Both the position numbers and the translations under genes were made by a program. A stretch of DNA of 49,447 bases, the filler included, from Dimargaris cristalligena (lineage: Eukaryota), in assembly GCA_003614675.1 (NCBI GenBank). It is 2 parts of 2 records of this genome, joined end to end, with 100 filler letters (N's around TTAATTAATTAA, not from the genome) between each part and the next. Parts side by side here need not be neighbours in the genome. Positions count along the whole stretch, not along the records: positions 24,782 to 49,447 come from ML002581.1; 1 more part is not named here. The stretch is one strand, 5' to 3'. Below the pieces are notes generated by a model. The model did not search any database and had not been told where the DNA came from. It was given only the letters and a program-made list of their open reading frames with translations. Positions 12,898 to 42,999 of the stretch are shown one piece after another. Positions within the stretch are counted from its first letter, which is position 1. Each line of letters starts with the position of its first letter.

Positions 12898-13920
12898 TTA
12901 CGACTCCAACCGCATCCTATACATAATTTCCTCACTCGACTGTTTCACTTCGCGACCTCCACCACCGAAACCGCCGCTGGAATTGATGTCCGACCGGTCG
13001 CCCCTGAAATGGACCTGGGTAATAACCGATGGCCGAATCGAATAGGTAATGAGTTCCCCCCGCTCCTCCATCCGAATAAGCATAATGTCAATCGGATTAT
13101 TAGGTGGGGTAAGGCCCTGGACCAGTTTGCGCGCCCCCTGTTTGGATACGGCATAGCCGTGCGTACAAGCGGGGGTGTCCCCCCGGTAAAGGTTGGCCTT
13201 GAGGTCCACGGCGTACCGTAACTCGCCTACACTATCCCCGCAGTGGCCCAAGAAAAAGGCGTCCCACGGCTGTTCCCCGATGGCCGCACGGGCCCGGGCG
13301 ACTTTCAGGCTAATGTTCCAGTCAAAGTCAATGTCGTCCTCTAGAATGAGGGCCGTCTCGATGGCGGGATTGTCAACCACTTCCTGGTACACGCGCATGT
13401 GGCTGTCCCAACAGGCCAAGTGACTGTCGCCCATGTCTTCGGAGCCGGGCGGGAACTTGGACCGGTCGAGGGTGAGTTTGTCGGTGGCGGGGAAGACGGT
13501 CATATTGAGATGCATAAAGTCGGCGAGTTGACGCATGCGGAACATATGGTCCGTGCGGCGTTCCAAATTGATCACGAATACTTTGTCGAACCCCAGGCGG
13601 GTGGTGGGCAGGGTCGCAGGCCCCCCATAGCCTTCCTGGTATGATTCCAGGGTGGGTCGAAGTACAGTGCCTCGTGGTGGTGGGTCGTACTCCCGCACAA
13701 ACACATTGAGATGGTAGCTGAGGATAGTCATGGCAATTAGGGATAGTACAATGTAGGCCAGCATAAGCCAGCCCTTGATACGCCGAAAGAAACGGCGGAT
13801 ACGGCCCAGTTTGGAGACCGGGGCAGTATAGAGCGGGTACTCAGGGGTTGGCGACGAGTTAGAGCCCACCGGGCTGAGCATTAATTGCTCATAGTCTTTG
13901 GAGGAGGGCGACTTGAACAT
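12898..13920 (-). CDS. GT25-family glycosyltransferase, type II membrane protein (paralog 1)
   Basis: Single TM helix after a basic patch; GT25 motifs FDKVFVINLERRTD, LACWDSH, ALILEDD, CTHGYAVS, PID. ATG at 13920. Confidence 0.9.
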   Translation of the reverse strand: MFKSPSSKDYEQLMLSPVGSNSSPTPEYPLYTAPVSKLGRIRRFFRRIKGWLMLAYIVLSLIAMTILSYHLNVFVREYDPPPRGTVLRPTLESYQEGYGGPATLPTTRLGFDKVFVINLERRTDHMFRMRQLADFMHLNMTVFPATDKLTLDRSKFPPGSEDMGDSHLACWDSHMRVYQEVVDNPAIETALILEDDIDFDWNISLKVARARAAIGEQPWDAFFLGHCGDSVGELRYAVDLKANLYRGDTPACTHGYAVSKQGARKLVQGLTPPNNPIDIMLIRMEERGELITYSIRPSVITQVHFRGDRSDINSSGGFGGGGREVKQSSEEIMYRMRLES

Positions 13921-15266
13921 GGTGACGGTATACAATTGCGTAGGCGTCACACCAGAGACTTAGTATAAACTAAATGCCGACCAACTTTAGAGGCCGGGTT
14001 GTATTAATACTAGCTGTAATCGTTTAAATGCAATAATGATAACTTAAAAGTTATAGAAGGGACAAGTGCTTGTCAAAAATCAAATAGGCAGATATATACA
14101 TATATGAAGTGCACGGTCGTTTGCGAATGTAAGACTCTACGAGCTCTGATTATCAGCAAGAGTGTAAATGCGAAAAATAGAAGCCTGGGTAGTTAACATA
14201 CACATATATATATTCGTATCTAAGGTTAGAAAAGGGTGAGCTGGAGTAAAAGATGAAGTCCACTGGTTTATTTTATTCCTACCGCATTTATTTTAAAATA
14301 TTCGCAGGTTTTGGATAACTTGTTTATGTAATTTTAGCGCCTGCAACGAAGACTGCATATTATAGAGCCTAAATTTTAGTCCCCGCCAGTTTGGCTTCAC
14401 TAGTTTACAGTTGGCACGTCCACTATAATCCCATATGTACTTATTCGCATTGAGCGGAAGGGGTGTTTCCCTTGTATACATCGTTACACAGTATTCCCTA
14501 CTTGCCATTGAACCTCGGGTATTTGGGGGGGCACAACGGGAGAAATACTCTCCCGCTTTCATTGTAAAGGGCTCGCCAAGACCACCAACTACACCCCTAA
14601 CTAGAGTAGCTGTATTACATTAAAAAGTGTGGCTTATGCGTACTACGTTATGTCGTTAATAAAGTAACATAGATTAGTCAAATCCTTCGCCGGTACACCA
14701 CTGTTGGGCTCTAACCTCGAGATATTGGACTTGGAGCTGTGAGTGAAGGTCATGGTTCCCCTTTTGGCGCAGTTTAATGTCCCTGGGTCCTGGTTCCCTA
14801 CATGTTGATACTGGTGCTTTTTCCTAGTTGGAGGAGACTTCTCCACGGATGGGCATACTTAACATTTTGGATGGGCTGACCTGAGATGGTAGGTTGACGG
14901 GAGGGACTTTAGGGAAGGTGTGTTATGAAATCACCCCCGATGCCTCTGACATCACCTGGTCCTGGCCCTCAAGTTCATCAACAACGTCAGGTCCCCATGA
15001 TACACCCAGTAAATTGATGTTTGCACCCATGATGTCATGATTCCTTGGGCCTTGATTAAAACCAACAGACCTCGGCCTCCTTAGGAGGATATCCCTTGAA
15101 CTCATTTTTATCAAATAAACACTTGGTTATTATCTTACTTACAACTCTGATTTTATACTTAGGCATTTATAATCATTGATATAACTATATTGTATCAAGC
15201 TCAACTCAAAAATAACATAACAGGTGTATATTAAAAATACAAGTACCAGTATTTGCTCAACAATAT

Positions 15267-16057: not shown

Positions 16058-16191
16058 AATATGGGTGAAATTCGGCCCAGGCGTATAAGGTTTTAAATAA
16101 TTAGTATATGGGATACTTAATTTTAACCAGCAATATTTGCTTCATCCAACGGATTTTTTGTTATACAGCTCGGTTGAACCTTTCCCATATG
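16058..16191 (+). mobile_element. MITE copy A (~135 bp)
   Basis: Ends ATATGGGTGAAATTCGGCCCAG and CAGCTCGGTTGAACCTTTCCCATATG form imperfect ~30-bp TIRs; homologous to copies at 25893, 26191, 39838 and 42857. Confidence 0.8.
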
Positions 16192-16579: not shown

Positions 16580-17549
16580 TTAGTGCAGCTGCCTGAGCAG
16601 CTTTAGTCGCCCCTCGGCAGAAGTGTCTACATTGTCACCAACATAGCCAAACTTGCCATCGGGGTTAATATCCGACTGGTCTCCTTTGAGGTGCACCTGA
16701 GTTATCAAGGGCGGGTGCATGGCGAGACTCTCCAGCACTTTGCGGGTAATTAAATTATCCAGCATGATGTCCACCGGGGCATTGGGTGGGGTCAGCTCCT
16801 GGACCAACTTACGGGCACCCCGCTTGGATACCGCATAGCCATGGGTACACGCCGGTGAACTAGAATGGAACACCCCGGGAAATGAGTCGAGGGCATTCCG
16901 GGGGTTTCCCCAGCCGGATTCACAATGGCCCAGGTAGAAAATGTCCCAAGGTCGGTCACCAATGGCTGCACGGGCCCGAGCCACTTTAGCTACGATATCA
17001 AAGTCAAAGTCGACATCGTCCTCCAGGATGAGGGCTGTCTCGATGGCGGGGTTATCGACCACTTCCTGGTACACTCGCATGTGACTATCCCAGCAGGCCA
17101 GGTAACTATCCCCCATACCCTCGGAGCCAGGTGGGAACTTGGACCGGTCGAGGGTGAGTTTGTCGGTGGCGGAGAAGACGGTCATATTGAGATGCATAAA
17201 GTCAGCAATTCCACGCATGCGAGCCAAATGGTCCGGACGGCGCTCCAAATTAATGACAAATACTTGGTCGAACCCCAACCGGGTGAGGGGCGTTAACGAA
17301 GTTTCTTGAACCTCTGTGGTGGCGTCCAGGTCGACCTTTTGGGCGGAGTCATAGTGACTACAGGCCAGGTAAACGTTGGTGGCCAGGGAAATAGTCGTAA
17401 TAAGTGCGGCGCCCCATAGTATCAACCGGTGGCGTTTAGTTGGCCTCGGGGGGGTGGCTGGAGGTTGGTGAGTGAGGGAGGTCGGGACCAGTGGAAATTG
17501 AAATTAGGGGGAGGTAATCCTTGGGCGATGTTCCGAGGGGTCCGGACAT
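16580..17549 (-). CDS. GT25-family glycosyltransferase (paralog 2), with an apparent +1 frameshift near the 5' end
   Basis: The long frame 16580-17425 has the TM helix and all GT25 motifs but no in-frame ATG before the TM. ATG 17549 gives MSGPLGTSPKDYLPL (compare paralog 1 SPSSKDYEQL) and is one base out of frame; a C7 run lies at 17448-17454. Confidence 0.8.
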
Positions 17550-20648: not shown

Positions 20649-21713
20649 CTACTTGAGCAACCTCATCATGTTCAGTCGCTCCTCAGCCGAAATTTGAACA
20701 TCTTCACCAGTGATACCGAACCCACCGTCACCGTTAATCTCCGACCGATCCCCTTCGAGGTGCACTTGCGAGATTATCGACGGATGCATAGCCAAACTGT
20801 CGAGTTTCCCATCTTTGAAGATGTCCATGACCATAAGATCTACCGGTCCAGTGGGTGGGGACAATTCCTTGACCAGCTTACGAGCACCGCTCTTGGATAC
20901 AGCGTAACCGTGGAGACAGACCGGGGCACTAGAATGGTACACGCCCGCGGACGCATCGATAGCATTGGCCGTGTTGCCCTCGCGGGGGCCACAGTGGCCT
21001 ACGAAGAAAATATCCCAAGCGCGGTCACCAATGGCGGCAAAGGCTGCCGTTAATTTGGCCGCCAGGTCCAGCTCGAAATCGGCATCGTCTTCCAGGATAA
21101 GGGCGGTTTCAATGGCCGGATTGTCGGCGACTTCCTGAATCACCCGCCGGTGACTGTCCCAGCAGGCTAGGTGGCCGTCGCCCATGCCTTCGGAGCCGGG
21201 CGGGAATGTGGACCGGTCGAGGGTGAGTTTGTCGGTAGCGGCAAAGACGGTCATGTTCAAATGCATGAAATCGGCAATTTGCCGCATGCGGGCCAAGTGG
21301 TCGGGCCGGCGCTCCAGGTTGATAAGGAACACCTCATCGAACCCCAGTCGGGTGCGAGGAATCGACAAACGGTTAATAAATTCGGGATAACCTTTCGGAT
21401 TAGCCGGGTTATTGCCGGCATAATATGCGGACAAAGGGGGTCGTTGGGTCGCTGAGGTTCGCGGGGTTGCCTGTTTTGACTGCTTTGATGACGTTGCCAG
21501 GGATTTGAGTTGGCTGGCGGCATTATGGAGGCGACAAGCCAGAACAATGTTGACAATAATAGACGCAATCGCAATAGGCAGGAAACTCCATAGGACTATG
21601 CGCCGTAGTTTGCTTGTTTTGGAGACTTTGGCAGGGGCTGGCAAGTCCAGGTCGTCGGGGACACGCACCGCGGCCAGGTGGGTCCTGGAAGAGGAGTCAA
21701 AGGCGTTGGACAT
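20649..21713 (-). CDS. GT25-family glycosyltransferase, type II membrane protein (paralog 3)
   Basis: 354-aa ORF with a TM helix (IVLWSFLPIAIASIIVNIVLAC) and motifs FDEVFLINLERRPD, LACWDSH, ALILEDD, CLHGYAVS. Confidence 0.9.
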   Translation of the reverse strand: MSNAFDSSSRTHLAAVRVPDDLDLPAPAKVSKTSKLRRIVLWSFLPIAIASIIVNIVLACRLHNAASQLKSLATSSKQSKQATPRTSATQRPPLSAYYAGNNPANPKGYPEFINRLSIPRTRLGFDEVFLINLERRPDHLARMRQIADFMHLNMTVFAATDKLTLDRSTFPPGSEGMGDGHLACWDSHRRVIQEVADNPAIETALILEDDADFELDLAAKLTAAFAAIGDRAWDIFFVGHCGPREGNTANAIDASAGVYHSSAPVCLHGYAVSKSGARKLVKELSPPTGPVDLMVMDIFKDGKLDSLAMHPSIISQVHLEGDRSEINGDGGFGITGEDVQISAEERLNMMRLLK

Positions 21714-23149
21714 GGTTTCGAGCCAAAGTTGTGGTTGTAGAAAAATCGGGATAGATAATGGGCTGACTAGCAGTAAATGTGGGCAAGCGCTACAAGCTCT
21801 AAATTTAGCACCGGAGCCAGATGGCTTGTAGTTTAGAGTGCCGGTTTCAGAGCCGGGGTATGGTTGAGGTGATTCCGGGAAGTGGGCTCGACCAGCTAAA
21901 CATAGACTAGTGACAACGGTGGCTTGCTATTGAAAACGATGAGCGGACGGGGCTTATAGGAAAACAACGAGAATAGGACATGTTGTGGTATCCATTGGGG
22001 TGTTATTGAATATATATATAGGGGTATACATGGACTGAGATATACTATCTATGTTATTCAAGTATAGTCGATCTACATTTATTGAGGTCTAGTACACATA
22101 TTATTATTATTTTTTGATTCACCGAGAGGGCATAGAGGCCATCTTAGGGCGACCCAATTTTGTGACCTCTTGACTAAAGGGAAACCCCAAGGATACACGG
22201 CCGAAATACAAGTGCTTGGCAGGGAACTCCCTTCCTTTATTTTACAGGAGAATATGGCTTTTGTCCTGCGCTCAAGGTTACGCAAGGGACAATGAGGAAA
22301 AGGAAAGGCGCTACTGTGTGTGTGTTGAGAGGTATATATATACAGGGTTTTTGCTTTGTCTAATTATAAATCACGTCAACTTGAAGTTTTAGATGTATAG
22401 ATTATAGCAAAATAGATACTATTTTTCCAGATGGGCTTGGGAGACACCGTTCGGTGCAGATACAGCGCCACCCTCTTGGGGAACACCACGGATTCCTTCC
22501 AAAGGTGGATATCTCCACTGGTTTGACACTTGACCCTAAGGTCCACCCATTTCTCACTTCTACTAAACACCTATAATAAGGCAATTTTTCTATTATGTAA
22601 GGTATAATCTATGGAATGTTTTATAAAAATGCATATTGGCTGCATTTATAACCCATTTATTCTTACAGCAATTCAGGGCACCGAGTAGCAGTGACTGTCC
22701 CCCCAAGGACAACGAATTAGGGACTTACGGGTGATGAGACTTAAACTGGCCCGACAAAACACCAAGCAATAGCATTATTCTATGCTGTTGGTAAATATAG
22801 TCACTGGCGCTCGTATTGGAAATTTACCAATATCACACACAGGCATACTCATATACCACGCCCCTTTAGCCGCCTTAGATATCTTCCTCCTGGATACACC
22901 ACCGAGTCTTGGCTAGTACCCCACTACCACACTATTGTTTTCAATTTTTTTTTGAGCTCCTCCTCCTTTTCCATCTCATATTGGGCTTGCAGTGTCTCGT
23001 TTATTAATATATCGGGTGACTTGAATTTGCTCTTTAGTCAACGGAATGCCGTACCATTCCTCCAATTTTCTATACTCAACAATACCCTGGGCTTCGCTCA
23101 CTCTGGTATTGTTCTTTTTATGGGCCAATTGGGATTAAATGCGACAGAC

Positions 23150-24526: not shown

Positions 24527-24825
24527 TGTCACCCAAGTTAACCACTTTTAGTATAAAGAACTGAAATCAAATCCTTGAAAACTGAACTTTATTTGAAAAA
24601 ATAGATAATAAGAAGGGAAAGGTGATGATAGACTTACTGTTCCAAGAGGTAGCAGCAAGGGGGAGTATTTATACTTGAAAGNNNNNNNNNNNNNNNNNNN
24701 NNNNNNNNNNNNNNNNNNNNNNNNNTTAATTAATTAANNNNNNNNNNNNNNNNNNNNNNNNNNNNNNNNNNNNNNNNNNNNCTATGATATAGAAGGTGAT
24801 AAATGGATATAGCTATGATATGACA
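24527..24825 (-). mobile_element. LTR-like element spanning the scaffold gap
   Basis: Bounded by TGTCA...TGACA; on the minus strand TATAAATA is followed by AATAAA; the left end matches the sequence at 15267; no CpG. No matching TSD seen. Confidence 0.5.
24682..24781. other. Assembly gap (Ns) with artificial TTAATTAATTAA spacer
   Basis: 100-nt block of Ns with a central six-frame-stop linker at 24726-24737. Confidence 0.95.
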
Positions 24826-25892: not shown

Positions 25893-26038
25893 TATTTGGG
25901 TAATATTCAAACCAGCTGTATAAGGTTTTACATAATTTGTGCATGGGTGAATATATGTAAGAATAGCTTTTAACCAGTAATATTGGTCTCATCCAATGGA
26001 CTGTTCGTTATACAGCCTGGATGAACTTCTCTCATTTG
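25893..26038 (+). mobile_element. MITE copy B
   Basis: TATTTGGGTAATATTCAAACCAGCTGTATAAGG...GTTATACAGCCTGGATGAACTTCTCTCATTTG; homologous to copy A. Confidence 0.8.
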
Positions 26039-26190
26039 AATGGACCAAAAACCCAACCAAATAGTTGATAACTGTGGTATATACCTACTCTTTGAGTAAT
26101 CCATTTGTATCCTTAAACATGCCATTTGGAAGTAAATGCCATTGGAAGCAGGTTCAATTCATTCTGCTGCAACTGCACAGGCATGTTAAC

Positions 26191-26336
26191 CATATGGGAG
26201 AGGTTCAACCAGGCTGTATAACGAACAATCCGTTGATTGAAGTGAATATTACTGGTTGAAAATAAATCTCCCATATATTATCCCATATACGTATCATTTA
26301 AAACCTTATACAGCTGGGCCGCATTTCACCCATATA
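26191..26336 (-). mobile_element. MITE copy C (inverted), TSD AAC
   Basis: CATATGGGAGAGGTTCAACCAGGCTGTATAAC...CCTTATACAGCTGGGCCGCATTTCACCCATATA, flanked by AAC on both sides. Confidence 0.85.
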
Positions 26337-27300: not shown

Positions 27301-30300
27301 TTAATTTCCATCTGGATTACCAAAGGGCGACGGCGCAGTGGCATTCTGGTTTTTAAGCAGGATATCCAAAATAGCCCCCATGCCCTTACGAAGGTCTTCA
27401 ACATCGCGGGTCAGCATTTGGTTTTGTTCAAACAGTTGTTTGATGCGATCATCCCCTTCTTCGGGCGGGGTCAAGGCCACGGTCGCGGGGGAGGTCAATC
27501 GCAGGTCGACTTTGCTGGGTGCGGTACTATTCTCCACTGGCTTTATATTGTTTAACATCGGGGATACCTCACCAACACTGATAACAGTCTTAGATGACGG
27601 TACCGGCTGAGCTGGGGAAACTTCCCCGTCTTGACTGGGTATGGGCATCGGGCGACCGGCGATCTCGCCGACCTGGCCTTCAGCCCCCGTGGTTGTAGTA
27701 ACGATTGGAGCTGCAGCTGTATCGTCGTCAGTAGTGGTGGTAGTAGGATCGTTAGTAGTAGCAGACCACACAATGTTGGACAAGGACCGGGAATTATGCG
27801 AGCATCGGCCAGATGGGGCTGTTTTATCCATCAACCCACGTCCCAATACATGGATAGTCGGCGGATTGGACAAGCGCATCCGCAGCGACTGGATTAGTTT
27901 CTGTTGGCTCAGGTTTAACTCGGGGGTAAGACAACGGGGGTTGCGCACATCCACGCTAGCCGACGAATGTTGAAAGATCTCAGCGGCCGAACGGTTTTTA
28001 AAGCCGTAGGATCGACCGGTCGTGGCGGCGGTTGAACGTTTAGGAGAAGAGGATAAGGAGGAAGAGGAAGATGATGTAGACGGTGGCGGGTAGGTAGATT
28101 TCGGCGAGAGCGAGCGATGAGCAGTGTTCAAAGGCCCACCACTCTTGGGGGGAGCCTGGTCATCACTACTGGAGGGCTGCCGGGATTTCGGGGCCGTAGG
28201 GGACAATGGGTTAATCCCTAATAAATTATTGGGCAAGATCTCTTCGAACGAATCACCGCCGGTCCCATGGCCCGAGTCTGGGTGCCGGGGACTTTCCACC
28301 ACCCCATCGCCAGGAATCGCCCTTTTCCCTTTCGGCGAAGAGCCGGACGCCTGAGGACTGGCCGGTGGGTGGGGACCGCCCGACCCCGCCTCGTTTACCG
28401 CCGCCCGATCCTCCGGCCTCAAATTAGTGATAAAGTCCAAATACCCAAACTGTTCCATATCCATGGACGGCCCTTCTTGCAATTCCATCGACAAATCGGT
28501 GGGGTCGATTAGACGAGGAGCCTGGCGTCGGGCGTACGACGGGTTTGTGCGCTTGACGTAGTTGTAGTAGATTTGTTTATCGTAACCCGTTGGATTCATC
28601 CGCATCGGTACTACGTCGAGAAGATCGAGAACGGTCGAGCGTTCGAAAAAATCTTTGCTCGGCTCGTTAAAATCGTAGGCGCCGGTTGACTCATCGTCTG
28701 GAGGATCTGGCATACCAGTCCCAATTGTCGTGGCGGAGACCCCTTTGTCAAGCGCAAAACCGCGCAGCGGGTGGATAGGCTGGGTAAGCGTATGGCCTCC
28801 ATCCGCGGCCGTCCGTAAAGGACGGGATGAAATAAGGTTCAGATCACCTGTGGAGTCTTGGTCACGGCCGCTGGCCAACCGGGGGGGACGACCTCCGCCG
28901 AGCCCTATACCACCGAGCCCACCTTCCAGATGCATGCGGGTATCGAGCTGCTGGGCCAATTGATGAACCGTACCCCCGGCACCGACGTTCGTATGAGTTG
29001 GTGTAGGCCGGCTACTCAATTCTAACGGTGACGGCAGGGGAGAACGCCCCCGTTTCCGATTCTCGGCGGGACAGGGCGAATCGTCAGCAGCCAGATCGAG
29101 CTGTAGTTTACCTTCCCGCAAGAGTCGTCGCTGCAGGAGCTGTTCGCGCTTTTTCCGCTTCTCTTCGATATGCTGCCGGGTCAGGCCGGCTGAGGCGGCA
29201 ATATGGCTGGCGGTACGCACGGGTCCGACAGTATGGGGAACCTGCGGTTCGGGTGGTCCAGACGGGGGAAGACCTTCCGGAACCGCGGGGATCAAGGGCG
29301 CTACGACATTGGAGATAACCATAGTGGGAGCGGGATGTACGGGGGGAGTTCGCAAGTGGAGGGGGGCGGTCTCCGGGCGGTGGGGTGTAATATCAGGAGT
29401 ATTCTGTTCCATGATTGTGGACAACAGTAGGTGTTTATCCTGGCGCCGCTGGGCAGCCTCGCGCTGGGCATCCGTGGCCGGTAGGACAGGCCGGGAAGGG
29501 GCTTCGGTGGATTCCGAAGCCGGTCGTGGTCGAGGGGCCCGTTCCACACTCGAGTCCCGGTCGGAATGGTGGCCCGCGGCATCCCGTATCATGGGGTCCA
29601 CGGGGGGTTGGACGCGGCCATAAGCGGCACCGTAGCGGGAACCTCGGAACATGCGGCCATTATCCTGCTGCTGGAGACCTCCTTGTAGGGCATGGGTAAA
29701 CGCCCGGGTACGCAGTAGAATAGGCTGGCGACCGGAAGCCGGGCTTGCACCGGGTTTATCCTCGGTGGATGGGGGTGGATCCAAAGTGGAGAGGTCGGCG
29801 TCCCTATTCCGGGGACTGGCTATTAACGCTGTTGCCGCTGCTGTTGTTGCTGTTGTTGCTACTGTTGATGGGAGCACCCGGGACCCGATCCCTAATGTCG
29901 ATTGAAGACCAGTTCGTTCAGTCTTTTTGGGGGTCCGTGGGCCCAAGCCAGTAGTGGAGGATGCTGATGACGAAGATGACTGCGGTGCTGGTGGCTGGGC
30001 CGGTTTCAGTCTCGGCATAGTTGAAAGCCGAGCAGGCACCGCTATCTTCGGGCTCGTGGCCTCGGCTGAAGTCACTGCGGCGGCCCTCTGTCCCGTATCG
30101 GTTGCCGGGTCGACTTCACTATCCGATCCAACCCGGGGTAGCGGCGGTCGTTCTTGAGCGGAGGGTCCCGCAGTCGAGGAAGTAGAGCTGCCCCGCTGCC
30201 GCATATGCTGGGTGCGGGCCAGGGATTGGGCCAGGGCCGGCACCCCCGGCGCCCGCTTCTCCGGGTTTAGTTTTGCGTGACTAGGGGGGCGTTTATGTTC

Positions 30301-30645
30301 GGGGTTAGCTAAACTAGGCGAATGTGACCGGCTGGAGAAGGCGGCAGCGGGTTCTACCACCTTGGGCCAGGCGGGGGACCGAGAGCGGGAAGTGCGATCG
30401 GTTACCGATGGGGGTGGTAGATCATTGACTGATAGGGGCCGAATACTGCGGGACCGGGGTTTCCTTAAGTTCGAGATGGGGGCCGCTGCCGCTGGCTCCG
30501 TTGGTGCCCCCGCCACTGGGGCTGTAGGGGCGGCGGGTGATTCGGTCGCCGGAGGATTGGCCGATGGCTCGGCCTCGTACATCCGGCGTTTCATGGCCCC
30601 AAGTCGCTCAATGCGTTTACGGCGCTGCACGGCGTAGTCATCCAT
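27301..30645 (-). CDS. Hypothetical 1114-aa, largely disordered P/S/A/R-rich protein with short coiled coils
   Basis: 3.3-kb uninterrupted ORF from ATG; helical patches at the N-terminus, the middle (HIEEKRKKREQLLQRRLL) and the C-terminus (RIKQLFEQNQMLTRDVEDLRKGM). No family recognised. Confidence 0.85.
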   Translation of the reverse strand: MDDYAVQRRKRIERLGAMKRRMYEAEPSANPPATESPAAPTAPVAGAPTEPAAAAPISNLRKPRSRSIRPLSVNDLPPPSVTDRTSRSRSPAWPKVVEPAAAFSSRSHSPSLANPEHKRPPSHAKLNPEKRAPGVPALAQSLARTQHMRQRGSSTSSTAGPSAQERPPLPRVGSDSEVDPATDTGQRAAAVTSAEATSPKIAVPARLSTMPRLKPAQPPAPQSSSSSASSTTGLGPRTPKKTERTGLQSTLGIGSRVLPSTVATTATTAAATALIASPRNRDADLSTLDPPPSTEDKPGASPASGRQPILLRTRAFTHALQGGLQQQDNGRMFRGSRYGAAYGRVQPPVDPMIRDAAGHHSDRDSSVERAPRPRPASESTEAPSRPVLPATDAQREAAQRRQDKHLLLSTIMEQNTPDITPHRPETAPLHLRTPPVHPAPTMVISNVVAPLIPAVPEGLPPSGPPEPQVPHTVGPVRTASHIAASAGLTRQHIEEKRKKREQLLQRRLLREGKLQLDLAADDSPCPAENRKRGRSPLPSPLELSSRPTPTHTNVGAGGTVHQLAQQLDTRMHLEGGLGGIGLGGGRPPRLASGRDQDSTGDLNLISSRPLRTAADGGHTLTQPIHPLRGFALDKGVSATTIGTGMPDPPDDESTGAYDFNEPSKDFFERSTVLDLLDVVPMRMNPTGYDKQIYYNYVKRTNPSYARRQAPRLIDPTDLSMELQEGPSMDMEQFGYLDFITNLRPEDRAAVNEAGSGGPHPPASPQASGSSPKGKRAIPGDGVVESPRHPDSGHGTGGDSFEEILPNNLLGINPLSPTAPKSRQPSSSDDQAPPKSGGPLNTAHRSLSPKSTYPPPSTSSSSSSLSSSPKRSTAATTGRSYGFKNRSAAEIFQHSSASVDVRNPRCLTPELNLSQQKLIQSLRMRLSNPPTIHVLGRGLMDKTAPSGRCSHNSRSLSNIVWSATTNDPTTTTTDDDTAAAPIVTTTTGAEGQVGEIAGRPMPIPSQDGEVSPAQPVPSSKTVISVGEVSPMLNNIKPVENSTAPSKVDLRLTSPATVALTPPEEGDDRIKQLFEQNQMLTRDVEDLRKGMGAILDILLKNQNATAPSPFGNPDGN

Positions 30646-32700
30646 GATCCCGAATCCGGTTGCTATTGTTGATATTGGACTATGTATAGGGTATTTGGGA
30701 TGGGGGGGAGGGGTTGGAAAGACAGCGGAGTTTTAAATCTCTCGGGGGTGTATTAGAGGGAGAAAAGGGGTCGAGGGTTAATATGACAAGTAGCTAAGTA
30801 GTATATATATATGTAGGTATTTAAATATGGGAATAGATATGCGTGGAAAAATAGTGGCGGAGGCGGAGAGATAGATGGGTTTACAACGAAGGTGGAAGAT
30901 GCTAAATCAAGGGGAACTGGGGGGGCAAGATTGTCACATGGTCGATGAGGGCAAGTATAGAGCAGTAATAATGGAATCTAAAGCGACGGCTAGAGAGGTA
31001 AAGATGGAGTAAGGGGATGAAGGAACTCGGGGAGGCGGAGTATGAAAAAATAGGCCACCACCGATAACCAAAACAAACGAACAGGAGGGGATAATAGGGG
31101 AAGGGAGAGGAACTCTGTTTGGAGAATACGAATAAGCGGGGTTGGCGGAGGGAAGGCCTAATAGCTCAGGAAGGGGACCGCTTGCAACGTGGAAGAGGCG
31201 GTTCTGATTTTTTTACACGGACGGTACCTAAGCTGGACAAGCCGAAACGGACACTGGCTGAGATTCTCAAGGGTCGTCCAATTGGACCGAAAACACGGAT
31301 TATATGAGAAAAAATCGAACCTAAAAGGACCCTAAGTTGGTCAGCCCCATGTTTCCTTAATCCTATATTCAGCCTTACACTGAAGTCCAGGTTAAAGTAG
31401 ATTTCCCCCTTCGTCCCGGATGTAAGTAAGACGCAAAGAAAATATTTTCCCGTGGAGTGGTTGTCAGTCGTTCAGGAGGTTGGTGAAATTTGGTCTGAAT
31501 GATAAATTTGATGGCACAGGTGGGGAAGATCTCCCCATCGGCTCTTTTCGAAAGCCACAGTCTGTCCATCCCCGTTTGAAAATATGAGTATTATGATTAT
31601 TATGATTATGGACTTGCTCCAGTGTACCACTACTATTGAATCCTAGTCAACAAAGGGGGGAGGGAAGGGAAACCTAGAGAGACCCAGGGTGAATGGGTGG
31701 GCCAGGAAAGGAAATGTCCCAATGAAAATAAATGTAAACAGCACCATCCAATCATATTGCAGGAATAACGGGACAAATCGATTGTGTATGAACCTAATAA
31801 TCGACCCATTTTATATCGGAGAAAAAGCACCATGGAAGACACCATCATTATTGACCCAGGCGGTCACTTTTGTAATGTGCGTAGACGTCATTAATATAGG
31901 TGACCGCATCATTTCATTTCAAATCATAGAATTTAGGTTTCTGACCTTCCTTTTGGATTCAATCCACCGAAACTAGTACACTGGTAGGCCGATGGAGTCG
32001 GCGGTAATCTGTAGGTCCGTTCCAGCGTCATCGGCCATTAAATAAAGATGGGATGGGTCACCGGTTAAACGACAGCTCCAAATTTCAGAGCAAAAAGGTG
32101 GGTGGTGGAGGTCGTATAAATCAAAATGGGAATAGGTATAATACACTTTGACTCCTATTACAATTCCAACACCCTCATACTCAGGGATATAGGGCTACGC
32201 TCGCTCTTGGAGTACAATGACAAGCAACCGTGTATCCACCATTGATTGATAGAAAATAATTTAATGTCTGAGATTAAAGAATGGGCGAGAGAGAGAGAAA
32301 GAGAGTATATCCCATGCGTAAGTATGTAAAAGAATAACAGATCATAATCAAATAAACCAACTCTCAGATCAGCAAGATGGAAGTATAACCGGTAAAATTA
32401 TAATAATAGACAGTATAAAAATGGATATGGGAAGTGGAGTATGTAATGAATGCATCGGTGGTACCTTGAATCGACCAACGATGGAAAATAATTCAAGGGG
32501 AGACGTGGAAGTGGAGGAACAGGCATCGCGTTGGAAACTTATACAAAAGGGATATGTGGCCCCTTAAAAATATTAAGTGGAAGCATATAAATATATATAT
32601 ATATGACAGAGATTATGGAAGAGTGGCACTGTGATAGGTGTGACCAATTACGGGTGTATCTAACCCAGTAATCGTATCGATAAAGAACATCGTCCTAATC

Positions 32701-39837: not shown

Positions 39838-39983
39838 CATTTGGGTGAAATTCGGCCCAGCAATATAAGGGTTTGCATTATACGTGTATGGGAAAATACA
39901 TGGGGAATGAATTTTTAACTAGTAATATTGGCCGAATTTAATGGATTTTTCGTTATACAGCTTGGATGAACTTCTCCCATTTG
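39838..39983 (+). mobile_element. MITE copy D, TSD ATC
   Basis: CATTTGGGTGAAATTCGGCCCAG...CAGCTTGGATGAACTTCTCCCATTTG, flanked by ATC on both sides. Confidence 0.85.
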
Positions 39984-40665
39984 ATCACAGGCCATATTGA
40001 CCGGTATTAAACTATGAGGGCTCAGAGCCTCTAATCTAAACTGTTGTTATCAGTAGCCCCCCCCCTATTTATCAGCACCCATCCTATTGATATTGTACGT
40101 TAAGGACAGAATCATCGCCCCTCCCTACCTTATTATCTGGTTGCCTACACTCCACCCCATAGGGTTATAGACCTAATTGGAGTAATTATCTGGGGAGGAA
40201 TCAAGACTACCACAAAATTCGACAATGGTCCTGAATTCCCAGTATTCTCACGCATATGCAATTTAGTTTCAATTAAATCCGATTTTAATGAATTGTAGGC
40301 CTAGCCATGGGATCCTTGCCCGTGCTCCTCCAAGGGGTTCATATAAAAGGAGTTCCCTGTCGCTTTCAAGGAAGGGGCAGGATATCTTTCCCAGGCGCAG
40401 GTTAGTTCTAGAGGGAAGTGGCACCTCGTGAGACCACATCATGGTCATGAGTCTTCGGGTCAGGGGGGGGGAGATCGGTAGAATAGTAGTGTACTAACAT
40501 AAGTAACGTCTAACCGATTCCTCAATGAACTGCTTTAGCCATGCTCGGTCGAAGACCTACCTCCGGTTTCTACAATAATGGGTTGGCCCTGGCAATTATT
40601 TAACAATGTTTATAAATAACTCAATTGGTAAAATCCAAAGGGCAACCACCAGACAAAGTCCCCCT

Positions 40666-41685
40666 CTAGCATTGTTTAATATGTCTGTTATACAGGCATT
40701 TCTTGGTAAATAGCTGATGACAATTGGCACAGGTATACGGTGGGGGAGGGCCACTCTTCGGTTTCCGATGACTTCTCAGTGCATCCCGATCACAGAATTT
40801 ACCACCACAGTCCGAACACTGATACGCAAACTTAGTACAGTCCTGTAGCACATGGGTGGCTAGTTGGTGGGCATTAGAAAAGATGCGTTGGCAAGTGGGG
40901 CATAGGTTTTGTTTCAGGCAGGGGTTGGTTGCACAATGTCGACGGAAGTTGGTCTGGTGTTTAAAGCTGCGGTGACAGTGGGGACAGGTCCGCGGATTCC
41001 GGCAGGTCAGTCGGTGGCGGTTCAGGTAGCCCTGCGTACGGAATCGACCCTGGCAGTACTCGCAGAGTAAAGCAGCACTGGTATCATTGGCATCGTGGAG
41101 TCGAAGGTGCCGTTCATAACATTGGTTATCGCGGATGCGGCGGGGACAATAGGGGCACAGTTGGCTTAGGGAGGCTGTCTCGGGAGAGCTGCCATCACTT
41201 ACTCGAAAGTGGGAGAGCCGTGCGGCAGGTATAATAGGGCTATGGGCTGCACTTGTACCACGGCCCAGGATCTCCTCCCCCCTACCCGGTGGTTTGGGGC
41301 CGCTAGCTGTATGTCCCTCTGCCCTAGTATTGTCGCTCATTAGGGCGGTAGCCGACATCTTTCCGTCATCGGCAATTCCCAGTTCCAAAAAATTACCAAT
41401 CGGGTAGTCCGGACAAAAATGGTTCGGCGGAATAAGAGTAGGATCGAGTCCATGATGACCAAGTGAGTGAGAGGAAGGGTTCTGGAAGGCATTCCAGTCG
41501 AAATAATTGGAGGTGTCCTCCTGGCCCATCATTTCGAGGACCCAGTTAATATCGGGTAGCGTCGAATCAATTTGATCAAACTGCTCTTCCTGGCCTTTCC
41601 CAACCCCGAAGAAGTTGGTAGAGGCAGCCATGAGGGGTAGGGTGGCCAAAGCGATACTTAACAGCCCGATCCAGACACTTCTCAT
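40666..41685 (-). CDS. Signal-peptide-bearing protein with six tandem C2H2/C2HC-type zinc fingers
   Basis: Intronless 339-aa ORF; N-terminus MRSVWIGLLSIALATLPLMAAS; the C-terminal half has six C-x2-C-x12-H units, mostly with the conserved F and hydrophobic residues. Confidence 0.85.
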   Translation of the reverse strand: MRSVWIGLLSIALATLPLMAASTNFFGVGKGQEEQFDQIDSTLPDINWVLEMMGQEDTSNYFDWNAFQNPSSHSLGHHGLDPTLIPPNHFCPDYPIGNFLELGIADDGKMSATALMSDNTRAEGHTASGPKPPGRGEEILGRGTSAAHSPIIPAARLSHFRVSDGSSPETASLSQLCPYCPRRIRDNQCYERHLRLHDANDTSAALLCEYCQGRFRTQGYLNRHRLTCRNPRTCPHCHRSFKHQTNFRRHCATNPCLKQNLCPTCQRIFSNAHQLATHVLQDCTKFAYQCSDCGGKFCDRDALRSHRKPKSGPPPPYTCANCHQLFTKKCLYNRHIKQC

Positions 41686-41883
41686 GATTAATGGTTTGGC
41701 GAAGCAGCTTGAGGGAAGAGAAGGAATGCACAGTGTAATTTTAGGTCAACTAAGTGCACTATGATCTTCGAGTAAACAAAAGATAATAAAAACGGGACAA
41801 ATAGGGGGGACGAACGTCTAGACGAGAAAATAGGTCGGCATTATACTGGATAAATAAATGCCTAGGTTGCGAATTATATATAT

Positions 41884-42540: not shown

Positions 42541-42856
42541 GAATTTGGATGTGGACTGTACCCCCCCCCCCCTGCGATTACACTAGGGGGTAAATGTAGA
42601 CTGTGTCTCGCCAATAGCCCGGCTAACGACTCCTCATACAATACCCCAGGGGTAGAGCTGCCTTTACAATCGCCAGCTAACCGGCCAAATTAATTGCCGC
42701 ATGGTCTTGGTTGGGGGGCATTTTGTTAAGAAAAAAATATGGCCTGGAACCCCAGCTTCAGTAAACTGGACCATTACTACATAGCTAAGTAGATCTTACC
42801 TTCTGACCAAGAACTTTACTGGTGTAGGGATTATGCGTTAGTAACAAATATTCGAT

Positions 42857-42999
42857 CATATTGGAGAGGTCTAATCCGGCTGTATAACGAAAAGGCCGAC
42901 TAATCAGGCAGGTATTACTTGTTAAAGTACCTATTATATATATTACCACACATTTATAATTTAAAGCTTTTCATTGTCGGCTTGAATTCCCCTCGTACG
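42857..42999 (-). mobile_element. MITE copy E (inverted, diverged), TSD GAT
   Basis: CATATTGGAGAGGTCTAATCCGGCTGTATAACGAAA...TGAATTCCCCTCGTACG, flanked by GAT on both sides. Confidence 0.7.

Follow-up and report, generated by a model that had tools for sequence, protein, structure and literature searches.

Results

A zinc-finger gene between two MITE-like repeats

The window, by which we mean the whole stretch of Dimargaris cristalligena DNA that was analysed (49,447 nucleotides), carries a zinc-finger gene in its second part, i.e. after the N-runs at 24682-24725 and 24738-24781 (44 N each). The gene is read on the minus strand as one continuous frame, and a copy of a dispersed repeat is found on either side of it. 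The parts of the gene and the two repeat copies are as follows:

40666-41685, minus strand: open reading frame (ORF), ATG to TAG, 339 codons plus TAG, continuous
41620-41685, minus strand: signal-peptide-like N-terminus, residues 1-22, with n/h/c anatomy, present only if translation begins at ATG 41685
41485-41592, minus strand: acidic/aromatic segment, residues 32-67 (9 D/E, 0 K/R, 6 F/W/Y)
41161-41475, minus strand: linker, residues 71-175, with no Pfam family and no relatives
40669-41157, minus strand: six CX2CX12H zinc-finger cores, residues 177-339 (one C2H2, four C2HC, one without a fourth ligand)
40756-40776, minus strand: basic patch RSHRKPK, residues 304-310, between fingers 5 and 6
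39839-39984, no strand given: copy of a ~145-nt dispersed MITE-like repeat, 3' of the gene
42854-42965, no strand given: MITE-like repeat copy 5' of the gene, inverted relative to 39839-39984, one terminus of which supplies the exon 1 ATG of the public gene model P0002

Following the frame upstream, we came upon an in-frame stop 20 codons 5' of the ATG at 41685, which makes this ATG the first of the open frame. The gene had been described as intronless in the first-pass annotation, and this description stands insofar as the frame is continuous over 339 codons, but not with respect to P0002, in which introns are predicted. We infer that the 339-aa product is a zinc-finger activator in which a disordered linker joins the acidic/aromatic segment to a basic array of six fingers, and the best explanation for the gene itself is that of a lineage-specific, single-exon gene from the mycoparasite D. 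cristalligena. AlphaFold2, run without an alignment on the 339-aa protein, returned a mean pLDDT of 37.4, and the model was therefore too poor for a fold search.

The two flanking MITEs of the first-pass annotation were recovered as the inverted copies at 39839-39984 and 42854-42965, and the ~145-nt family to which they belong has five copies in the window, the others being at 26191-26335, 25894-26039 and 16059-16191; among the three copies examined, two have 30-nt terminal inverted repeats. The copies at 25894-26039 and 26191-26335 adjoin each other. The LINE remnant proposed for the same neighborhood did not hold up, as the 10 flanking ORFs gave no Pfam match below E 0.09 and no reverse transcriptase or endonuclease was found in them. 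A non-LTR (LINE) retrotransposon was rejected on this ground, together with the single-copy status of the zinc-finger gene in a repeat search of the window.

The acidic segment and the finger array

The acidic/aromatic segment noticed earlier is indeed present, with 7 L/I/M/V among its 36 residues besides the acidic and aromatic residues listed above, and the net charge of residues 23-70 is -8. Judged by this composition, residues 32-67 may well resemble an acidic activation domain.

The finger array, with a net charge of +19 over residues 176-339, matched the Pfam family PF00096 (zf-C2H2) in 5 stretches at 55.9 bits, vs. a cut-off of 25.2 (E 3.6e-15), and PF13894 at 40 bits, vs. a cut-off of 27. 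Its sequence matches in the PDB, comprising 55 distinct sequences, were DNA-bound arrays, among them Aart (1.3e-17), PRDM9, ZNF568, CTCF and Zif268. As to the six tandem fingers claimed for this protein, six CX2CX12H cores can be counted, but only one of them is a true C2H2 finger: His is the last ligand in finger 1 alone, whereas in fingers 2, 3, 4 and 6 a Cys stands in its place, 3-5 residues after the first His, and at this spacing finger 5 lacks a fourth ligand. The linkers between fingers are 4-10 residues long. Recognizing that Cys as the fourth ligand can bind zinc, we consider the fingers to be probably functional, albeit atypical. The bias towards Cys as fourth ligand, in 4 of the 6 fingers, is unlike the 131 of 4294 cores ending in Cys in the 148 generic poly-finger proteins listed, in which 4080 of the 4294 cores end in His.

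The basic patch RSHRKPK is found at residues 304-310, as had been reported, and matches only a relaxed basic pattern; RRIR (182) and RKPK (307) are the only relaxed matches in the 339-aa protein, and this same protein gave no match to a strict monopartite or bipartite NLS. Zinc-finger arrays can themselves mediate nuclear import. The putative mature protein would contain 21 Cys, of which 20 are in the finger array.

Searches for relatives

In a word search with the whole protein, one of the 1065 candidates proved to be a relative, namely the locus itself, and the same was true of residues 1-175 (1 of 372 candidates) and residues 170-339 (1 of 21). The representative search gave, among the matches listed, only P0001 and P0002 as close ones, the other 148 being poly-finger proteins of 621-5807 aa with 25-34% identity, for which the best stretch never began before residue 132. 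Apart from the models of the locus, these searches gave no protein of similar length; in addition, a metagenome scan yielded 184 pattern matches with 0 relatives, and the ESM Atlas gave no usable match. From these comparisons the gene appears to be an orphan, homologue-free in the sequence collections searched.

Public gene models of the locus

Whole-protein and representative searches thus led to two close records, P0001 and P0002, both of which represent this very locus and both of which are devoid of residues 1-18. P0001 is 321 aa long, 100% identical, and begins at Met19 (MAAS...). P0002 (KAJ1981817.1, a 162-aa hypothetical protein of Dimargaris cristalligena) joins an upstream exon straight onto Ala20, drops most of the linker as an intron (41202-41462, 261 nt, in frame) and has a further splice at its end; the protein segments common to P0002 and the window are identical, splice junctions apart. 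The upstream exon is located as follows:

42806-42859, minus strand: exon 1 of P0002, 17 residues, judged spurious

This exon was rejected on two grounds: 1) its ATG (42857-42859) lies within the conserved CCCATATG-type terminus of the MITE-like repeat; 2) the acceptor at 41628-41629, through which the exon would be joined to Ala20, reads GG, not AG, in the window. The DNA of the P0002 record probably differs at 41628-41629, possibly at the Met19 codon. Within the frame there is also a perfect donor-like hexamer, GTAAGT, at 41197-41202 (minus strand, codons 162-163), and the AG overlapping its first base is the acceptor that P0002 uses for the 261-nt in-frame intron. The hexamer was dismissed as a splice donor: with the nearest AG acceptors the intron would measure only 24 or 38 nt, too short in either case, and removal of 38 nt would break the frame as well.

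With regard to an RNA basis for the start of either model, the words "transcriptome" and "RNA-seq" are absent from the text of PMC6784888, which reports use of the JGI Annotation Pipeline; for low-coverage genomes, the models described in PMC9866270 are ab initio consensus ones. P0001 and P0002 may each stem from either type of pipeline. As P0001 begins at Met19, secretome pipelines run on this model would miss the protein, a practical blind spot whereby effector candidates are lost via the choice of start codon.

The hydrophobic N-terminus

Classical ER signal peptides are taken here to have a positive n-region, an uncharged h-region of ~7-15 residues and small residues at -3/-1. On direct reading and with a crude n/h/c heuristic of our own, residues 1-22 conform to this pattern: the n-region is MR, the h-region S3-L16 is uncharged and followed by P17, and small residues occupy -3/-1 for a putative cleavage after A20 or S22. 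The best 15-residue Kyte-Doolittle mean within residues 1-22 is 2.12. The classical signal peptide of the first-pass annotation is therefore present as far as its anatomy is concerned. The h-region appears short enough for a cleaved signal, and 14-16 residues followed by Pro would fit cleavage better than an anchor.

We applied the same heuristic to window ORFs, Met positions, random peptides and zinc-finger proteins as controls. Among the 82 ATG-initiated window ORFs with 60 aa or more it passed 2, one being the target itself; it also passed 2 of the 109 Met positions lying in ORFs with 100 aa or more, 905 of the 20000 random peptides drawn from local base composition and 2 of the 148 unrelated zinc-finger proteins. 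Given a control pass rate of ~1.4-4.5%, a signal-like pattern of this type is uncommon, not rare.

The charges around the hydrophobic run are also informative about orientation, with R2 preceding the run and a net acidic flank following it. According to the positive-inside rule, the positive flank of a hydrophobic segment stays cytosolic; the C-terminal array would therefore face the lumen, giving an N-in/C-out orientation that fits secretion. A membrane-tethered transcription factor was rejected on the basis of this topology, since its DNA-binding domain would have to face the cytosol and not, as here, the lumen.

The choice between two start codons

Export of the protein hinges on the use of ATG 41685, and the following features bear on this choice:

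41629-41631, minus strand: ATG of Met19, start of public model P0001, with C at -3 and G at +4
41818-41841, minus strand: upstream ORF (uORF), MPTYFLV plus stop, 7 codons, in frame with the main ORF
41874-41882, minus strand: TATA-like TATATATAA, ending 189 nt 5' of ATG 41685

The two in-frame ATGs, those of Met1 and Met19, are 18 codons (54 nt) apart, and the first has A at -3 (ccattaatcATGaga). By the scanning rule, an mRNA that includes the first AUG is translated from it, and A at -3 normally keeps an AUG from being leaky; a Met-Ala start with G at +4, as at Met19, is a very ordinary and common eukaryotic start. The TATA-like TATATATAA is a possible promoter element, and the ATG of the uORF is the only other ATG between this motif and ATG 41685. 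In codons 1-18, the third-position G+C is 0.67 (12/18), as compared with 0.53-0.54 in the remaining ORF, 0.55-0.68 in five other window genes and 0.37-0.40 in the upstream sequence, so that codons 1-18 are coding-like by this measure, 18 codons being too few to be decisive. We consider it somewhat probable that the first AUG (41685) is used, and a start at this AUG is the slightly favored reading, with the deposited models and the Met-Ala at Met19 counting against it. Transcription may also begin somewhere in the 54 nt that separate the two ATGs.

Discussion

Dimargaris cristalligena is a haustorial fungus that attacks Mucorales, and control of the fungal host by biotrophic mycoparasites is almost unknown. 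The biotrophic or mycoparasitic lifestyle that had been guessed for the source of this DNA is in agreement with the published record, in which D. cristalligena is placed among the biotrophic mycoparasites (PMC6784888).

The idea of a secreted zinc-finger effector is not new, as MoHTR1-3 precede it. MoHTR1 and MoHTR2 of Magnaporthe oryzae are secreted C2H2 proteins that bind DNA and make their way into rice nuclei (PMC7672089), while MoHTR3, a small C2H2 protein equipped with a signal peptide and an NLS, is secreted and likewise reaches rice nuclei (PMC10189765); C2H2 domains are found in 10 of the 20 predicted secreted proteins of M. oryzae with a DNA-binding domain (PMC7672089, PMC10189765). 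The premise of the first-pass annotation, by which C2H2 proteins would not take the ER route, is thus outdated, MoHTR1-3 being described as secreted and as nuclear in rice (PMC7672089, PMC10189765). The protein of D. cristalligena is akin to MoHTR1-3 in its proposed N-terminal signal peptide, in its C2H2 domain with basic residues, in being encoded by a lineage-restricted gene of a fungus nourished by living cells of its host and in its proposed action on transcription in the host nucleus. In contrast to the MoHTRs, which are described as small, with a single finger domain, and for which secretion, uptake and DNA binding were shown experimentally with a plant host, the protein of D. cristalligena has 339 aa, six fingers (four of them C2HC) and an acidic activation-like segment, and its host would be a fungus. 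This likeness is drawn from the described layout and not from sequence relatedness.

The nuclear tandem C2H2 factors (Aart, PRDM9, ZNF568, CTCF, Zif268/EGR1) share with our protein the CX2CX12H fingers, a basic array and an acidic region, but differ from it in that four of six fingers here have Cys as fourth ligand and in the possible signal peptide. In animal C2H2 arrays the conserved linker is TGEKP, and a linker of this type is absent from the D. cristalligena array.

The concept proposed here, that of a sequence-specific DNA-binding activator delivered by a parasite or symbiont to its host, is also embodied by TAL effectors and by the TAL-like effectors of Mycetohabitans acting in the mucoralean fungus Rhizopus (PMC11261895). 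TAL-type effectors come from bacteria, which deliver them through type III secretion, and consist of TAL repeats; the likeness to the D. cristalligena protein is one of analogy only. A TAL effector as such was rejected, as the protein has no TAL repeats and the four Pfam families found at E <=1 are zinc fingers plus Rad50-hook noise. The ZiF (zinc-finger fold) effectors of M. oryzae are likewise secreted fungal effectors with a zinc-finger fold, but are described as binding a host Tubby-like F-box protein and not as DNA-binding activators (bioRxiv 10.64898/2026.10.15.759101). In the literature searched, supplementary tables (a possible place for candidates) aside, mycoparasite effectors of a nuclear or zinc-finger type did not turn up; the word "zinc" is absent from the main text of PMC13188720, and "zinc finger" from that of PMC9391592.

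Taking these observations together, we put forward, tentatively and a little short of calling it probable, a signal-peptide-bearing candidate secreted zinc-finger effector as the best overall explanation for this gene. We postulate that translation would start at the first AUG (41685), that the nascent chain would carry a cleavable signal peptide of ~20-22 residues and that the protein would enter the ER and leave the cell, in which case it would be a candidate secreted zinc-finger effector of the MoHTR1-3 kind; uptake by the host fungus would be followed by import into host nuclei, where host genes would be switched on. The successive parts of this proposal do not carry the same weight. Entry into the secretory pathway is quite possible, falling just below what we would term probable, while uptake by the host fungus with import into its nuclei and activation of host genes seems unlikely on present grounds. 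The proposal in its widest form, namely that a haustorial mycoparasite of an early-diverging lineage exports a complete six-finger activator, acidic activation domain and DNA-binding array together, to the nuclei of the fungus it parasitises and thereby switches on host genes, is decidedly doubtful. These gradings are matters of judgement and were not computed; that for entry into the secretory pathway combines the control pass rate, the composition signal, the contrary gene models and a guessed prior of a few percent for a C2H2 gene of a biotrophic fungus being secreted.

We counted the following in favor of secretion: 1) the A at -3 at ATG 41685 and the coding-like codons 1-18; 2) the n/h/c anatomy, the orientation of charges and the sparse passes among controls; 3) the mycoparasite source, the orphan status together with the MITE flanks, and the precedent of the MoHTRs; 4) the uORF ATG as the only intervening ATG, with no RNA support found for the models that omit residues 1-18. 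Counted against secretion were: 1) both public models, which lack residues 1-18; 2) the ordinary Met19-Ala start and a chance rate of ~1-5%; 3) the passage of 21 Cys through an oxidising ER, while the MoHTRs are described with a single finger domain; 4) the missing match to a strict classical NLS and the lack of a paralogue or orthologue showing a conserved hydrophobic N-terminus. We regard the protein as a worthwhile candidate and not yet as a discovery. What the first-pass annotation observed is for the most part borne out; its interpretation, plausible and in keeping with the organism, rests on the choice of a presumed start codon.

It is on this choice that the main alternative turns. The protein may instead be an ordinary nuclear activator of D. 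cristalligena, translated from Met19 of an mRNA whose transcription start lies within or just 5' of the 54 nt, with the hydrophobic "leader" being untranslated sequence that is open and in frame by chance. We consider this a serious possibility, albeit one that we would not term probable. It accounts well for the fact that P0001, with its 321 aa, starts exactly at Met19, where Met-Ala with G at +4 makes a common start, and an activation domain joined to a finger array is the standard layout of such factors, the array here matching DNA-bound nuclear factors in the PDB and, with its 20 Cys, being best suited to a reducing compartment. In addition, signal-like N-termini arise by chance in 1.4-4.5% of controls. 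To omit residues 1-18, however, a nuclear activator requires either that the 5' UTR fall short of 54 nt or that scanning ribosomes leak past an AUG despite its A at -3, and the third-position G+C of codons 1-18 (12/18), vs. 0.37-0.40 upstream, is coding-like; nor was RNA support found for the start chosen in P0001.

The secreted and the nuclear protein might also be made from the same gene, the former from Met1 and the latter from Met19, via alternative transcription starts or leaky scanning. The in-frame AUGs, 18 codons apart, have complementary contexts for such an arrangement (A at -3 at Met1, G at +4 at Met19), and the loss of exactly the h-region would leave the activator intact. We nevertheless find two products very improbable, since A at -3 normally prevents leaky scanning past an AUG and the additional step explains no additional observation.

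Finally, residues 1-22 could be translated and the protein still be no effector, whether as an uncleaved type II anchor, as a misfolded ER client or as the product of a young or decaying ORF that is barely expressed. An N-terminal half without relatives in any search, four of six fingers ending in Cys and one without a fourth ligand (vs. His in 4080 of 4294 generic cores), and the MITE-rich surroundings could all be read in this way; we deem it very improbable, given that the frame is open over 339 codons with third-position G+C above the non-coding level, that the segments shared with P0002 are identical except at the splice junctions of that model, that an h-region of 14-16 residues plus Pro is more in keeping with a cleaved signal than with an anchor and that a type II anchor would leave the DNA-binding array in the lumen, where it is functionally senseless.

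Returning to the candidate secreted effector, its export would provide a handle on host reprogramming, because the DNA-binding specificity of the fingers can be read against the host genome, and it would show that the MoHTR concept is not confined to plant pathogens. If the export of a six-finger activator were true, TAL effectors would have in this protein a counterpart among eukaryotes, and fungus-on-fungus parasitism the first nuclear effector described for it. If the protein is not exported, the gene would encode an ordinary lineage-specific transcription factor.

Other genes of the window

Elsewhere in the window, a 1143-codon open frame at 27301-30732 (minus strand), with a G+C of 0.57-0.62, has no Pfam family at E <=0.001. 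Pfam domains assigned to other window ORFs are Fungal_trans, EXS, MT-A70 and three Glyco_transf_25 domains. The ORFs with the Glyco_transf_25 domains, at 12898-13959, 16580-17503 and 20649-21926, are all on the minus strand and within 9 kb, forming an apparent cluster of tandem paralogues.
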